From: an uncultured Thermoproteaceae archaeon
GTDB lineage: Archaea; Thermoproteota; Thermoprotei; Thermoproteales; Thermocladiaceae
Direction: 5' to 3'
Assembly (NCBI GenBank): GCA_964575955.1
Contig: CAZNTG010000006.1
Coordinates: forward strand, 32,001 to 96,000
DNA length: 64,000 bases
The notes beneath the pieces were generated by a model that saw only the letters and a program-made list of their open reading frames with translations, searched no databases and was not told the DNA's origin. This document shows positions 31,417 to 56,075 of the stretch, one piece after another. Position numbers and translations under genes: made by a program. How positions within the stretch are numbered: the first letter of the stretch is position 1; each line of letters starts with the position of its first letter.

Positions 31417-32700
31417 TTAATATTTAACAATTTTTGATATGAAAAATCCAGAACATCTATGTATGTGAGGTAAAATGATAACACACTTCCTGAGTATAGG
31501 ACTAGAAATACCCAACTTTAAAATTCCAGTATAGTCAATATCGACATTGTCTAAATTAAGCATAGAGATAACATTATACTCATTCTCTTCATATGTTAAA
31601 GTACATGTACAATAATACACAGTACTACCTCTCAAAACTTTACTTAACACATTTCTAAGAAGATTTCTCTGAAGTCTAGACTTATTTAAAACATCTATAG
31701 GAGTTAACCACATCTTAATTTCAGGATTATGTTGAAGTCTACCTAAACTAGAACAGTCAGGATCTATTAAAAATAGTTTAGTACTATCTCTAAGCTTAAT
31801 AGGAAGATATGTAGAATCAGTATGCACATAGTCAACATTGTATAACCTAATTCTCTCAACATTCCTCTTAATCTCTAAAATTCTTCTTCTAGAAATTTCA
31901 AAACCTATAGTATAAAATCCATATTGAGATATGTAAGACATCTTATTACCAGGACCTGCTGTCAAATCTATAAAAATAGTCTTATACTTCCTACACTCCT
32001 CGAGGAGTAGTTTAGATATAGCTAAACTAGCCTTATCTTGAGGATATATTAAACCATCTCTATACTCTTTCAATTTAGTAACATTAACATCACTATGAAT
32101 AACTATTAAATCATCAAAGTCTGGATCAACACTACAAGAAATACCTTTCTCGTTGAGTCTTCTAACAACTTCGTAAACACTTACTAGATGTGTACATACT
32201 CTAACATACTTAACAGGTTTTTCCATTAAAAACTTCAACAAATCTTCTATACTATCCTCAACATACATCATAAATCTCTCAATAATCCATCTGGGTGTTG
32301 AATATTTTACACTTAATTTCTCAATAAAATCTTTACCATGTAGTAATTCGTTGATATCAAAATTCTTAGATAGTAAAGCTATATCTCTTATACATAGTTT
32401 AAATTTTCTTAAGAATCTATACAACTTATCTACACTGTAATTTCTATACAATATCTCATAAACTAAGACTCGTAGAAGATTTTTTCTATAATTATCCAAT
32501 CTTTCAAGTTTTATATTCAAAAATTCTCTACATATTGCATCTATAGTTAAATATCTCTTTGCAATATTTATTGAGAGAGCTTTAATTATAGGTCTAATAT
32601 TTTCATATTTTATAAGTTTATATATTGAGTCTCTTATAGTTGTCTTCTTCTCAATACAGTATGTGAGTACTTTTGCTGTTAATTCTTCTATCGATAACAT
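31417..32700 (-). CDS. RsmB/NOP2 family RNA m5C methyltransferase
   Basis: QDKAS, DLTAGPGNK, DPDCSSLG, YCTCTL...ENE, GFFI. Confidence 0.9.
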   Translation of the reverse strand: MLSIEELTAKVLTYCIEKKTTIRDSIYKLIKYENIRPIIKALSINIAKRYLTIDAICREFLNIKLERLDNYRKNLLRVLVYEILYRNYSVDKLYRFLRKFKLCIRDIALLSKNFDINELLHGKDFIEKLSVKYSTPRWIIERFMMYVEDSIEDLLKFLMEKPVKYVRVCTHLVSVYEVVRRLNEKGISCSVDPDFDDLIVIHSDVNVTKLKEYRDGLIYPQDKASLAISKLLLEECRKYKTIFIDLTAGPGNKMSYISQYGFYTIGFEISRRRILEIKRNVERIRLYNVDYVHTDSTYLPIKLRDSTKLFLIDPDCSSLGRLQHNPEIKMWLTPIDVLNKSRLQRNLLRNVLSKVLRGSTVYYCTCTLTYEENEYNVISMLNLDNVDIDYTGILKLGISSPILRKCVIILPHIHRCSGFFISKIVKY

Positions 32701-33998
32701 TCTAATGTCACACTACTTCTCAAAGATAAACTTTCAATTATATACTTATGTATTTTCTCAGCTAATTCTTCCTGTTCTCTCCAATATCCTTCAAGTCTCT
32801 TCAACTTCTCTATCTCTCTAAGTGTTTCTAAATATTTTGGATGTATCTTTCCTGGCTTCTCATTTTCAAATGGTGTTCCGGGTAGTGGCATAAATGTATG
32901 TCCACGAATTATACATCCCTTCTTTGCAAATTCAAGCATTACTTTTGAAGTTATTTCAACATCTTCTTCAGTTTCTCCAGGTAGTCCAAATATGAAGTCT
33001 AGACATGGTGTATATCCATATTCTAGACATAGATCAACAGCCTCGTATACACATTCAATATTGTGACCTCTACCTATGTAATTTAGTAGTCTATTACTAC
33101 CTGTCTGTACTCCAATCGAGATCTTCTTATTATCTACATATTTTGAAACTACTTCAAGAACATCTCTATTAATAAAGTCTGGTCTTACCTCACTTGGAAA
33201 TGTTCCTAATACAAGTTTTGATTTACCTTCAACAGCTTCATAAGATGTTTTTAACATATTTTCAAGTGCTTTAATATTTGGTCTCTTACAATCTTTAGAA
33301 CCATATGCAAATCCATTTGGTGCTAAGTATCTTATAGTTTTAATACCAATCTTATAGTAATGTCTACACCATCTATATATTTCGTCAAGACTTCTATACC
33401 TAACCTTAAACATGTATATTCTAGGTGTTTGACAATACTTACATGCATGTTTACAACCTCTCATAATTTCAAGTGGTGCATATATTCTGAACCTGTCAAC
33501 ATATGGGCATGATGTATAGATCTTATCAGGAATGTAGTCTAGAGTCTTTATAATCTTCTCACCATCTCTATAAACTATATTTGGAACATCTCTCAAATCT
33601 TCATAACTGACTAGAGCATCTAGAAGTCTAGGTATTGTAATCTCACCTTCTCTAAGAACAGCAATATCAAAACCAAGTCTCAATAATGTACCTACAGGAT
33701 CACCAGATGCATGAGGACCACCAGCAATAAGTACTAAGTCGTGAGTTTTTCTAAGATCTCTAAGCATTTTCAATTCTTCAATAATCTCAACATCAAATAT
33801 TTGAGGTGTCATAAGTGAATACATCACAACTATGATATCTGAATCACATTTTAGAACTTCATTAACAACATCTCTAGCTAGGATTATATTCTTAACAAAT
33901 CTTCTAGATATTGAATAATTTTCAAGTATTGATAGTACATAAGCTAGAGAAAATCTACTAAGATCAGAATACTTAACTATTATAGTAACACTCTTCAC
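32688..33998 (-). CDS. B12-binding radical SAM protein (TIGR04013-like)
   Basis: AGGPHASGDP, RGCKHACKYCQTP, GTFPSEVRPD. Confidence 0.9.
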   Translation of the reverse strand: MKSVTIIVKYSDLSRFSLAYVLSILENYSISRRFVKNIILARDVVNEVLKCDSDIIVVMYSLMTPQIFDVEIIEELKMLRDLRKTHDLVLIAGGPHASGDPVGTLLRLGFDIAVLREGEITIPRLLDALVSYEDLRDVPNIVYRDGEKIIKTLDYIPDKIYTSCPYVDRFRIYAPLEIMRGCKHACKYCQTPRIYMFKVRYRSLDEIYRWCRHYYKIGIKTIRYLAPNGFAYGSKDCKRPNIKALENMLKTSYEAVEGKSKLVLGTFPSEVRPDFINRDVLEVVSKYVDNKKISIGVQTGSNRLLNYIGRGHNIECVYEAVDLCLEYGYTPCLDFIFGLPGETEEDVEITSKVMLEFAKKGCIIRGHTFMPLPGTPFENEKPGKIHPKYLETLREIEKLKRLEGYWREQEELAEKIHKYIIESLSLRSSVTLECYR

Positions 33999-34053: not shown

Positions 34054-35901
34054 GTGACAAGTCTAACAATGAATATAGTAGATGTCGATAGTGGAAAGAT
34101 TGAAAAACTTCAAATAGATTTTAAAGATATTAGAAAGTTAATACACCCAACATTAATAATGTATAAGATATCTAAAGATCTAAATCTTAAGAATATACTA
34201 GCAATACTTCAACATCCATCAAAGCTATTTAAAATTCCTGGAACAACATCAATATACTTAATAGATATTGAAAATGATAAGATTAGCTGTGTTAGAGCAC
34301 TTGTAGGAAATATAGATTTTAAACATAAGTTCTTTGGAATATTATTCAAAGATAGGAAGCCTTCAACAATAACTATAGAAGATGATAAAATTCTATTTAA
34401 TGAACCTAAAGATAAAGATCAATATGCTAAGATAGTTGTAGATAAGGATAGATTAACTACAGACATATTTTCAATAAAGCACAATCTAAATATTGACAAA
34501 TTCGAAATATATGTTAAGAAGAGTATTAACGATTCTACAGATGTAGATATTGATAGAGAGTTTATTAGAAAAATAGAAATTCTATATAAATACTCACCAA
34601 TCATCGGTGAAGACTCTCCGGTCAGAAGACATGGTCTAAAAGCAATTATTAATAAGTTAGTTGGTTTAGAACTTAGAGAAGATGTTAAGACTAATATTGA
34701 AAATGTTAGAAGTGATTTAAGATTTTGCTGTAATTACTGTGATGTGTCTTGTCTTAATTCTATATATAACTATAATATTTTTTATTATGACTATATGTAT
34801 AGTATTATTCAAGATTTTGTATATGATAACGATCTTTTAAGTAGATTGAAGTCTAGTTGTGACGATCTTTTCTACATAGTACAGATGTTGTATATGTGTA
34901 GATTTAACTATCCTGAAAAGCTTGAGAAAGGTTTTGAGAAACCTAGTTCTAATCTATACTACTCTATAAGTATGCTTGGTCTATGTCCATTATGTATGTT
35001 ACTCTTCTCTAAGTCTAGAGATTTCAATATTGATATACCTATACAAATTTTGAAATATCTATACAAAATTGATGTTAAGTTAGACGATTTTATTAAGATT
35101 ATTGAAAAGTTCAGGCCAACATTTAGATTTTCTATAATGTTGAAGAATGTTGAAGATATTTTGAAGATTATGTATCAATTTAATGATGTTGATAAACCTG
35201 TCAATTATATTCATCCTAACTCTATTCTTAGAGATAGGAAAGTTCAGGTTGCTATTGATGTAGTTGATGTCCCTGAGCGTATTATTGATATTGCTTTTAC
35301 ATGTATATCTTCTGGAATTGATATTGTTGAAGTAGGTACACCATTATTGAAGTATTATGGAGTTAAGATTGTGGAGTTGTTGAGATCTAACCTTCCTGAG
35401 GGTACTATAATATTTGCAGATACAAAAACTATGGATGTTGGTGATCTAGAGGCAAGAATTATGTATATACATGGTGCTGATATGGTATCTACAATGGCTA
35501 TTGGAACATTATCTAAAATTAAGGAGGCAATATTTGAAGCTGCAAAATTTGACAAGATTCTACTTATAGATTTAATGCAGTGTGAAAATCCTATAAGAAA
35601 GATAGAGGAAATGAGAGAAATTCTCGAAAAAGCATATCCGTGGATAATCATATGTGTTCATAGAGGAATAACAGAGCAGATAAGAGGAATGGGTATTGAG
35701 TCAGATATAGATCTTATCAGAAAGATTAGAGAGATCTTACCTAAAGAGATACCACTAGCAGTTGCTGGAGGAATAAAGTTGGGAATAGCTAAGAAAGTTG
35801 TAGATGCAGGAGCAAATATTGTTATAGTAGGTGCAGCAATATACACATCTAGAGATATTGGAGAAACAGCTAGAAAGATTGTGAAAGAAGTTAAGTCTTA
35901 A
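34054..35901 (+). CDS. Fusion: degenerate aldehyde:ferredoxin oxidoreductase-like N-terminal region plus 3-hexulose-6-phosphate synthase (HPS/KGPDC family) C-terminal domain
   Basis: C-term VQVAID, IVEVGTPLLK, ADTKTMDVG, AVAGGI, IVGAAI (confident); N-term resembles AOR motifs (less certain). Confidence 0.75.
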   Translation: MTSLTMNIVDVDSGKIEKLQIDFKDIRKLIHPTLIMYKISKDLNLKNILAILQHPSKLFKIPGTTSIYLIDIENDKISCVRALVGNIDFKHKFFGILFKDRKPSTITIEDDKILFNEPKDKDQYAKIVVDKDRLTTDIFSIKHNLNIDKFEIYVKKSINDSTDVDIDREFIRKIEILYKYSPIIGEDSPVRRHGLKAIINKLVGLELREDVKTNIENVRSDLRFCCNYCDVSCLNSIYNYNIFYYDYMYSIIQDFVYDNDLLSRLKSSCDDLFYIVQMLYMCRFNYPEKLEKGFEKPSSNLYYSISMLGLCPLCMLLFSKSRDFNIDIPIQILKYLYKIDVKLDDFIKIIEKFRPTFRFSIMLKNVEDILKIMYQFNDVDKPVNYIHPNSILRDRKVQVAIDVVDVPERIIDIAFTCISSGIDIVEVGTPLLKYYGVKIVELLRSNLPEGTIIFADTKTMDVGDLEARIMYIHGADMVSTMAIGTLSKIKEAIFEAAKFDKILLIDLMQCENPIRKIEEMREILEKAYPWIIICVHRGITEQIRGMGIESDIDLIRKIREILPKEIPLAVAGGIKLGIAKKVVDAGANIVIVGAAIYTSRDIGETARKIVKEVKS

Positions 35902-36075: not shown

Positions 36076-37197
36076 ATGTCTCTGATAGAGAAGATTAAGC
36101 CAATGAGTATTGGTCAGGAAAGACTGCTAAATGCATTAATGGATGATAGAAATGAGATTGTTGGTGCTTTTGGACCAACTGGTACTGGTAAGTCACTACT
36201 ATCCTGTGCATATGGAATATCTGGAGTTTTAAGTGGTAAGTATAAGAAGTTTATTATCGCTAGACCTGTTGTTGATGTTACAACTGGAGAATTGATAACA
36301 CCTGAAAGACTTGGCGATCTATACTACAAGATTGCTTCATCATATCTAGAAGATATTCTTGGAGAATTCATGTCTCGTGATGAGATACTCAAACTACTTC
36401 ATGAAGGTAAGGTCATTGTAACTGATGTATCATATTTAAGAGGTAGAACATTTGACGATTCTGTAATATTTCTAGATGATGCACAAAATGTACAACCTGA
36501 AAGTGCTGCTGAGATCTTAATGAGAATTGGTAGAAATTCTAAATTAATAATTGCTGGTGATCCAGTATTACAGAAACCTGTAACATTTGAAAAAGATGGA
36601 GCAACTCTACTAAGAGAAGTATTACTTAATGAAGAAAATGCAGCAGTAATTGATCTAGGATTGAAGGATATTGTTAGACCTGGAGCTAGGAGAGGTGTAA
36701 AAGTAATATTTGAATTGAGAATGAGGAAGAGAGAATTGACAGAGAGTGAGAGACAACTACTAGACCTAGTTAAAGTATGTGCACCAGATGCAGATGTTGT
36801 AACAGTAATAGAGTTTAAAGCTGAAAAAGATAGTTTAGGAATAAAGTCTGAAAACGTACCTGATGCATTAATAATAGCGAAAGAGGGACATCTAGGTAGA
36901 GTTGTTGGTAAAGGTGGTGAGAGAATTAGAAGTGTTGAAAATGAGTCAGGACTAAGACTTAGAGTAGTTGAAATGACTCTAGACTTCAAGAATTGGATAA
37001 GAGCAATACACCCAGTATCATGGATTGGAAAACACATAATTGATGTAGATCTAGCAGGACCTGAACTAGTAGTAACAGTTAGAAGAAATGCATTTGGAAC
37101 ATTTGTAGGACAGAGAGGAATGTATGTTAGACTACTCGATAGAATATTTAAGAGATTAATAAACGTTGGTATTAGAGCTATGGAAAGTGAAGAGTAA
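36076..37197 (+). CDS. PhoH-family ATPase with C-terminal KH domains
   Basis: GPTGTGKS, YLRGRTF, DDAQN, GDPVLQ; GRVVGKGG and GTFVGQRG KH loops. Confidence 0.9.
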   Translation: MSLIEKIKPMSIGQERLLNALMDDRNEIVGAFGPTGTGKSLLSCAYGISGVLSGKYKKFIIARPVVDVTTGELITPERLGDLYYKIASSYLEDILGEFMSRDEILKLLHEGKVIVTDVSYLRGRTFDDSVIFLDDAQNVQPESAAEILMRIGRNSKLIIAGDPVLQKPVTFEKDGATLLREVLLNEENAAVIDLGLKDIVRPGARRGVKVIFELRMRKRELTESERQLLDLVKVCAPDADVVTVIEFKAEKDSLGIKSENVPDALIIAKEGHLGRVVGKGGERIRSVENESGLRLRVVEMTLDFKNWIRAIHPVSWIGKHIIDVDLAGPELVVTVRRNAFGTFVGQRGMYVRLLDRIFKRLINVGIRAMESEE

Positions 37198-55277: not shown

Positions 55278-56075
55278 ATGACATTGATAGAACATTTACG
55301 AACTATATCAGAGAAAGCTAGAATGTATCTACTACTAATAGCACTATACAATCCAGGAGTACATCTAGGATCTTCATTATCAGTAATTGAAATATTGACA
55401 GCACTATACGGTACAGGTAGAGTAAGCTTTCTTAAAGGTGATATTGATAGAAATTGGCTAATATTAAGTAAAGGTCATGCTGTACATGCAGTATATGCAA
55501 TAGCTGCAGCTATGGGATACCTATCATGGAATGACCTTAGAAATTCAGGTACAATAATGAGTCCACTACAAAATCATCCAGAACTTGGATGTCCAGGTGT
55601 TGATGTAGCAACAGGATCGCTAGGTCAAGGTGTTAGTATTAGTGTAGGTATTGCACTAGGATTAAAACTTAGAGGATTAACAAATAGGAAAGTATACGTA
55701 ATACTTGGAGATGGTGAACTTGATGAAGGTCAGACATGGGAAGCATTTTCAACAGCAGCACACTACAACTTGACAAATTGGATACCAATAATAGACCACA
55801 ATAAGATACAGCTAGATGGTAAGGTTGATAATGTTAAGAAGAAGGGTGATCTAAGGAAGAGATTTGAATCTCTTGGATATGATGTTGTTGAAGTTGATGG
55901 TCATGATATAAATGCAATACTTGGAGTTTTAGAAGATGTTGAATCTAGTAATAGGATGAGTGTAATTATAGCACATACAGTACGTGGTAAGGGTGTACCT
56001 GTACTTGAAGGAACTAATAGACAGAGAATGTTTAGAGAAGAGATTTTACAAATACTTAAAGAATATATGCAGTAG
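55278..56075 (+). CDS. Transketolase N-terminal (TPP-binding) subunit
   Basis: HLGSSLS, LSKGHA, TGSLGQG, GDGELDEGQTWE, TVRGKG. Confidence 0.93.
   Translation: MTLIEHLRTISEKARMYLLLIALYNPGVHLGSSLSVIEILTALYGTGRVSFLKGDIDRNWLILSKGHAVHAVYAIAAAMGYLSWNDLRNSGTIMSPLQNHPELGCPGVDVATGSLGQGVSISVGIALGLKLRGLTNRKVYVILGDGELDEGQTWEAFSTAAHYNLTNWIPIIDHNKIQLDGKVDNVKKKGDLRKRFESLGYDVVEVDGHDINAILGVLEDVESSNRMSVIIAHTVRGKGVPVLEGTNRQRMFREEILQILKEYMQ

Follow-up and report, generated by a model that had tools for sequence, protein, structure and literature searches.

What is the long N-terminal part of an archaeal protein in which Pfam detects a HUMPS domain only, leaving two thirds of the chain unnamed (a warning for annotation in itself)? 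The protein is encoded in the genome of an uncultured Thermoproteaceae archaeon, within a window of 64,000 nucleotides (assembly GCA_964575955.1, contig CAZNTG010000006.1, positions 32,001 to 96,000, forward strand) that forms the whole stretch of DNA analyzed here. A first-pass annotation, made from the letters alone, had read the C-terminal part as an intact HPS (3-hexulose-6-phosphate synthase), with the preceding ~390 amino acids (aa) as derived from a tungsten-type aldehyde:ferredoxin oxidoreductase (AOR). The explanation that we favor, with moderate confidence, is a working HPS that carries a catalytically dead descendant of such an AOR at its N terminus. This remnant probably carries an Fe-S cluster and supports the barrel in a structural or regulatory role.

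The N-terminal domain and the HPS barrel

Direct sequence comparison does not by itself tie the N-terminal domain to AOR. Pfam returned no family for the first ~390 aa at E≤10, and the AFOR models (AFOR_N, PF02730; AFOR_C, PF01314) matched none of six N-terminal domains at the same threshold. A profile search of PDB sequences with the domain gave only an unrelated match (E 0.7), BLASTP against the genome's own AORs reached E 0.19 at best, and hhalign against the three own AORs only was weak, with a colinear alignment (Prob 3.8%, E 0.011). Fold comparison gave AOR-fold matches. With an AlphaFold2 (AF2) model of the domain alone, built from six sequences (per-residue confidence, pLDDT, 74.8; predicted template-modeling score, pTM, 0.80), all nine Foldseek matches at E≤0.001 were AOR-family chains (9g7j, 6x1o, 1aor, 8c0z, 1b25, 4z3w and 9mqx; E 1.2e-6 to 3.5e-4), the tenth match lying at E 0.15. 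VIA-align placed seven AOR-family entries at Z 10.7-12.8 over 312-340 residues, with a root-mean-square deviation (rmsd) of 4.7-5.3, while the next best entry reached Z 3.5. Because model residues 1 to ~370 align end to end on chain residues 8 to ~605, the domain represents the whole AOR fold with internal deletions, not a truncation.

Profile comparison led to the same family once full-length AOR-HPS fusions from public databases, here called long forms, were used. In a local hhalign comparison, the N-terminal domains of nine proteins of the present type (short forms) matched the AOR parts of 31 long fusions (Prob 72%, E 3.4e-5), pairing residues 80-228 with 99-297 and setting CxxCxxxC on CxxCxxxC. 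A second colinear match paired 279-348 with 442-518, with the Cys of LCP on the fourth AOR Cys and FELD on FELD, and the global alignment was likewise colinear (E 1.3e-5). The homology of the domain to AOR became clear only once fold searches, the profile of long fusions and the tree described below were brought in. The proposed AOR origin is supported by Foldseek, VIA-align and hhalign: the first ~390 aa form an AOR-family domain of reduced size. Six AOR landmarks had originally been listed, and profile-profile alignment finds five of them in place (MNIVDVD..., ILAILQHP..IPG, KPSTITIEDDKILF, CxxCxxxC and LGLC). The remaining one, RRHGLKAII, had been likened to the GSKxLKAI stretch of AOR; it aligns instead with an 'LxxxGT' segment at the start of AOR domain 2, and GSKxLKAI itself falls in the deleted or unrecognizable part of the short form.

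The C-terminal part matches PF00215 over residues 396-609 (E 7.3e-26; 91.9 bits against a cut-off of 27), and its best-scoring NCBIfam model is TIGR03128 (E 2.8e-41), which covers residues 397-611 with model positions 1-203 of 205. By sequence, the closest solved relatives are the HPS chains 9lj9_B (E 8.6e-32) and 3ajx_A (E 9.6e-25), with both of which QVAxD, EVGTP, DxKxxD, VHxGxxEQ, AVAGG and VGxAI are all aligned. The active-site motifs of the suprafamily are identical to those two structures and invariant in the nine short forms; we take the functional positions to be the Asp after strand 1, the Glu in EVGTP, the His in VHxG and the phosphate-binding GG and VGxA, and DxKxxD is the OMPDC/HPS suprafamily signature. 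A Foldseek search started from the full-length model put 9lj9_A on top (E 1.5e-13, rmsd 1.8, 36% identity) and listed TIM-barrel matches only, as the barrel fills the list, and a KGPDC model gave the barrel only 61.6 bits. Judged by its motifs and matches, the segment from residue ~396 to ~614 is an intact HPS barrel, with catalysis predicted; its activity may be altered. It is the sole HPS match in the window's genome (G000; 1.52 Mb, 94.7% complete).

The two parts lie in one open reading frame of 615 aa from a GTG. An internal ATG at 34069 offers an alternative start that would give 610 aa, and GTG was taken as the colinear start because relatives, which begin V/MDTLxLY, start five residues 5' of the common 'IVD' motif. 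With a G+C content of 26-36%, the window is AT-rich. No relative has a stop codon at the domain junction, and the same single frame recurs in 10 different proteins from several assemblies. In an independent sequencing run from another study (X2), a 343-base contig (34945-35287) spans the junction with 0 differences; X2 contigs leave 34339-34877 without coverage, a further run (X3) contained just a minor portion of the stretch, and the likely source run covers the whole stretch. The domain junction is therefore not an assembly artefact, and the idea that two genes were merged by a sequencing or assembly error, or by a lost stop, is scarcely credible. With the alignment to solved HPS structures and the independent contig in hand, the first-pass view of a true fusion with an intact HPS was borne out, and neither of the findings that the first-pass annotation had named as fatal to it (an N terminus with no AOR-fold match, or two separate genes joined by a lost stop) was observed.

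Relatives of the fusion and descent of the short form

We looked for the N-terminal domain outside this gene in several ways. A word-indexed search with residues 1-395 returned 3 proteins, the window's own included, of 608-610 aa and all with PF00215. An exhaustive HMMER search of 1.84 billion cluster representatives likewise found only 3 proteins at E≤0.001 (42%, 27% and 26% identical; 602-610 aa), each with a C-terminal HPS barrel, and no stand-alone copy of the domain. The records of short forms are of uncultured Thermoproteota, Thermoproteales and Thermoproteaceae metagenome-assembled genomes (MAGs). In a survey of 41 genomes (the window's own and 40 relatives), a profile of the domain was present in the window's genome and in five of the six other genomes of its genus, gave a weak match (E 3.5e-4) in one genome of a sister genus, and was found in 0 of 33 genomes of six other genera. 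HPS itself occurs in 39 of the 41 genomes. Outside the genus it is encoded in open frames of ~215-380 aa; inside the genus every HPS match is of the fused type, in frames of 612-643 aa plus one copy cut by contig ends. In one MAG of the genus (G001; 69% complete, 3% contamination), two distinct short-form genes occur, each of full length: L008 on contig C56 and L013 on contig C1. They have the same radical-SAM neighbor, and the pair could reflect a strain mix or a true duplication.

The weak match in the sister genus is an 829-aa protein, P0008, in which AFOR_N (2.7e-81) and AFOR_C (3.2e-89) are followed by PF00215 (1.5e-27), and which by its domain content is a complete AOR fused to HPS. Its AOR half resembles AOR-type structures (9mqx_D, 8.8e-129; 1aor_A, 4.2e-116) ahead of the formaldehyde:ferredoxin oxidoreductase (FOR) 1b25_A (1.4e-81). 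When the HPS part of P0008 was searched among proteins of 455-1451 aa, 38 were returned. Thirty-one have AFOR_N, AFOR_C and PF00215 (mostly 797-830 aa, with one 696-aa fragment), one is a fragment with AFOR_C and PF00215, and the other six, at 608-617 aa with PF00215 only, are short forms, the window's included. Sources of the long form include Bathyarchaeia and Hadarchaeota/Hadarchaeales MAGs.

A maximum-likelihood tree was built from 52 HPS domains (9 from short forms, 33 from long forms or fragments, and 10 of the same family not fused to AOR) and rooted at the midpoint, with stand-alone HPS sequences as outgroup. Fused HPS domains stand apart from stand-alone HPS (branch support 100/98). 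The short forms make up one clade (100/100) nested among the long forms, its sisters being, in turn, P0008/P0009 (99/96), P0010 (99/91) and P0011 (85/86); the long forms appear as a single group in 0 of 200 bootstrap trees. From this nesting, we conclude that a full-length AOR-HPS fusion gave rise to the short form when its AOR half decayed.

Besides the long form, the sister genus has an HPS/RraA-like gene that stands apart from it (NF005442; 618 bits, cut-off 593). Its AOR-HPS gene (L012:565..3054, reverse strand) lies tail-to-tail with an open reading frame (L012:41..568, forward strand), the two overlapping by 4 bases. By eye, the latter looks like a gene for a serine recombinase or resolvase with a C-terminal zinc ribbon, a neighbor that suggests a mobile element as a possible carrier of the long fusion.

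Loss of AOR motifs and retention of the Fe-S cysteines

What decay removed can be read against 88 near-invariant AOR columns, defined from the 31 long fusions and the genome's three own AORs. In the short forms 35 of these are deleted and 53 aligned, and just nine are kept in at least eight of the nine proteins: P57, G189, C221, C224, C228, D253, Y275, P282 and C306 (the cysteines are numbered on the 610-aa protein). The AOR part is shorter than that of long fusions by ~205 aa. Deleted or replaced are GGRG, GPxT, IGPAGE, the GRxGxGxVxGSK block, E314, the AYxP...H431 segment and the Asp of DxxGLC (P0008 numbering), elements that we take, from the AOR structure literature, to be those of pterin binding and catalysis. 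With these conserved glycine-rich, Glu and His motifs lost, the domain would neither hold a tungstopterin nor oxidize an aldehyde. It is best described as an AOR homologue that is not a functional member of the family and can hardly be an oxidoreductase.

The cysteines that bind the Fe-S cluster in AOR have fared differently from the rest. Among 10 different short-form proteins, whose N-terminal domains are only 22-43% identical, the second, third and fourth cysteines are present in 10/10 and the first in 9/10 (the motif of one protein, P0042, was read by eye). Retention at this level of identity argues that the four do not form a chance pattern. The first-pass claim that pterin-binding and catalytic motifs are gone while the Fe-S cysteines remain therefore holds, with 79 of the 88 columns lost. 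Nine further polar residues of the domain (E201, N230, D253, D266, Y275, R278, Y281, E283 and Y297) are invariant in the nine short forms.

Genome context and competing explanations

The features of the gene and of its surroundings are collected in the table. Its neighbors are unrelated housekeeping genes, for an RsmB-type methyltransferase, a B12-binding radical-SAM protein, a PhoH-KH protein and an APH-like kinase. Synteny of the radical-SAM and PhoH genes extends through the genus, and the divergent radical-SAM arrangement is kept in 5/5 related loci examined (59-67% identity), with no evident functional link.

Features of the fusion gene and its surroundings (window positions)
Feature	Position	Strand	Basis or remark
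Whole open reading frame, pseudo-AOR domain plus HPS, stop codon included	34054..35901	+	Full-length orthologous frames in 5/6 other genomes of the genus
AOR-derived domain of reduced size, ~396 aa; spans the AOR fold from end to end, is internally deleted and has no recognizable pterin or catalytic motifs	34054..35241	+	Foldseek, VIA-align, hhalign; 79/88 columns lost
CNYCDVSC (CxxCxxxC; C221, C224, C228), three of the four AOR [4Fe-4S] ligands	34729..34752	+	Profile alignment, column conservation
C306 in MLGLCP, aligned with the fourth Fe-S Cys of AOR (second DxxGLC motif, Asp lost)	34984..34986	+	Profile alignment
HPS barrel, VQVAID... to the C terminus	35242..35898	+	Family profiles, solved-structure matches, fold
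DTKTMD (DxKxxD)	35419..35436	+	Alignment to solved HPS; invariant in 9/9 short forms
B12-binding radical-SAM gene	32688..33998	-	Divergent; 55 bases from the fusion-gene start
PhoH-like ATPase with KH domains	36076..37197	+	Downstream
Transketolase N-terminal subunit, 267-aa frame	~55362..56018	+	G000:C6:87362-88018

Elsewhere in the genome, on another contig, PHI has a gene of its own (176.8 bits; cut-off 160). Three intact AOR paralogs are present. The nearest, G000:C6:19061-20221 (reverse strand), lies on the same contig, ~12 kb before the window start and ~46 kb from the fusion gene, and is the paralog closest to the ancestral AOR half, at 43% identity to the AOR part of P0008. The genome encodes the N-terminal subunit of a transketolase, and searches of it turned up no Fae, G6PD or transaldolase; with neither of the last two found, the non-oxidative pentose phosphate pathway appears incomplete. 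In archaea with a reverse ribulose monophosphate (RuMP) pathway, one formaldehyde is released for each ribulose-5-phosphate made, and the gene set fits this archaeal route to pentoses. For the route itself, PMC10547907 cites Orita et al. 2006.

In the explanation that we favor, the barrel would run the RuMP pathway in reverse, taking fructose-6-phosphate through hexulose-6-phosphate to ribulose-5-phosphate plus formaldehyde, and would thereby be the cell's route to pentoses. The AOR remnant would still bind a [4Fe-4S] cluster and would be to the barrel an integral structural partner, possibly one that is sensitive to redox state. Removal of the released formaldehyde would take place in trans, and the most plausible agent is one of the three stand-alone AOR paralogs.

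Several observations weigh against this explanation. The barrel's TIGR03128 score of 141.5 bits falls below the equivalog cut-off of 200, and a long branch (0.95) lies under the HPS domain in the tree. Over residues ~229-278, in its middle, the alignment to AOR is uncertain; to the eye, SCDDxF could be what is left of the first DxxGLD motif, in place of the column chosen by hhalign. One lineage of short forms (P0041, L010 and L028) has Ser at the first Fe-S Cys (RVGSAYCPVKC), for which a Ser ligand, a 3-Cys cluster or a cluster lost from these proteins are candidate explanations. Two observations in favor come with caveats. By its codon substitutions the N-terminal domain is under purifying selection, the ratio of nonsynonymous to synonymous change (dN/dS) being 0.15, 0.19 and 0.18 in the three closest pairs (HPS, 0.09-0.16) at a dS of 0.7-2.1, which is near saturation; more distant pairs are unusable because their dS is saturated or undefined. 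The AF2 model of the full-length protein (9 sequences; pLDDT 89.9, pTM 0.91) points to one compact two-domain body and lifts the region of the Cys motif from a pLDDT of ~44-55 in the domain alone to 87-93, a gain that may partly reflect the use of 9 in place of 6 aligned sequences.

The remnant might also have been put to a more active use, as a pseudoenzyme turned regulator whose kept [4Fe-4S] site ties the only pentose-forming, formaldehyde-releasing enzyme of the cell to redox, oxygen or iron, or to a stand-alone AOR. We regard this as unlikely, and the same doubt attaches to its specific form as a redox or oxygen switch, in which the cluster would sense the redox or iron state and turn HPS, and with it formaldehyde release, up or down. 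Such a switch would be in keeping with the survival of the four Fe-S cysteines while nearly all other AOR-specific columns were lost, with the nine further invariant polar residues and with the compactness of the two-domain model, but a structural cluster accounts for the same conservation, and the lineage with Ser at the first ligand speaks against it. More improbable is a docking adaptor, an idea that the first-pass annotation had put forward beside redox sensing, by which the remnant would pair with an active stand-alone AOR or FOR subunit so that formaldehyde from HPS is handed on and oxidized. AOR enzymes are homo-oligomers, three intact paralogs are at hand and the ancestral fusions joined an intact AOR to HPS, all of which count for docking; yet the conserved neighbors are only the B12/radical-SAM and PhoH-KH genes, with no ferredoxin, AOR or PHI gene among them, and the nearest AOR paralog is distant. 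A complex prediction that paired residues 1-370 (9-row alignment) with the closest of the three AOR paralogs (629 aa, 3-row alignment) scored 0.00 in two runs, a score that favors neither side.

An inert relic, with no cluster or role of its own, which persists because the barrel depends on it for folding or because deletion is slow, seems to us as improbable as docking. In its favor, the domain evolves very fast: at 50-60% HPS identity, N-terminal domains of short forms are 24% identical (n=24 pairs) where the AOR parts of long forms are 52% identical (n=82), so that, relative to HPS, the former evolve ~2 times as fast, and between the same genomes identity is 34% for the fusion protein and 84-88% for the neighboring PhoH gene, the latter range holding across the genus. 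Against a relic, the dN/dS values are well below 1, all frames are intact across deep divergence, and the cysteines and ~20 other columns of the domain are invariant. Very unlikely is a barrel that is some other enzyme of the OMPDC suprafamily, with an aldehyde as product or substrate that formerly went to the AOR part. The sub-cut-off family score and the long branches between the fused clade and stand-alone HPS would suit such an enzyme, whereas the best matches, by a wide margin, are to HPS models and to solved structures of HPS, the KGPDC score is low, and the genome contains PHI and no other HPS that we found.

Known fusions and the place of the short form

The working-HPS explanation with a dead AOR partner has its nearest parallel in the long forms (~800-830 aa), which share with the short form the order of domains, the HPS clade, CxxCxxxC...C, FELD and the linker into QVALD. 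The short form differs from them in its reduced AOR part, in keeping 9/88 columns and in having no AFOR Pfam match. In the Fae-HPS proteins of methanogens (NF009833), HPS is likewise C-terminal to a formaldehyde-handling part, and their HPS part matches here with E 1.2e-36. The logic is the same, with formaldehyde release coupled to removal, but the Fae partner is active and of an unrelated fold, whereas the partner here is AOR-derived and degenerate, in a genome without a detected Fae. In HPS-PHI (NF041755; solved as 9lj9), which contains the closest solved relative of the barrel by sequence and by fold, the partner is C-terminal and is the next enzyme of the pathway, unlike the separately encoded PHI of this genome. 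The HPS/RraA-like bifunctional protein (NF005442) is also an HPS fusion, but has a different C-terminal partner domain, not in this gene. With tungsten AORs (1aor, 1b25, 6x1o, 8c0z, 9g7j, 9mqx; BamB, 4z3w), the short form shares the three-domain fold and the [4Fe-4S] Cys pattern; GGRG, GPxT, IGPAGE, GRxGxGxVxGSK, the conserved Glu and AYxP...H are deleted or replaced here.

The first-pass annotation had regarded the architecture as one not known to have been described. No description of an AOR-HPS fusion was found in the full-text literature searched, a body that leaves subscription journals and supplementary files outside it, and the portions available to us of PMC7143981, PMC11291895, PMC8065059 and PMC10547907 mention HPS-PHI, Fae-HPS, or AOR as a separate formaldehyde oxidizer, and no AOR-HPS fusion. 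The claim has to be narrowed nonetheless, since full-length proteins with AFOR_N, AFOR_C and HUMPS are present in public databases (32 clusters). What is new here is the degenerate, pterin-less form that retains the Fe-S cysteines; within what was searched, this form is limited to a single uncultured genus, in 3 clusters at 50% identity.

To our knowledge, the means by which such archaea dispose of formaldehyde are poorly settled except in methanogens, which rely on Fae-HPS. The full-length AOR-HPS fusions are gene-fusion evidence for an AOR-type enzyme as the formaldehyde sink, and the gene described here descends from a fusion of this kind, is naturally 'AOR-dead' and is now, as found, the sole HPS of its genus. 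Long and short forms together offer a built-in control for channeling. The short form is also a clean case of an enzyme domain decaying to a pseudoenzyme with its metal-cluster site kept and, if the regulatory reading of that site is true, it would constitute an Fe-S switch on the reverse RuMP pathway.

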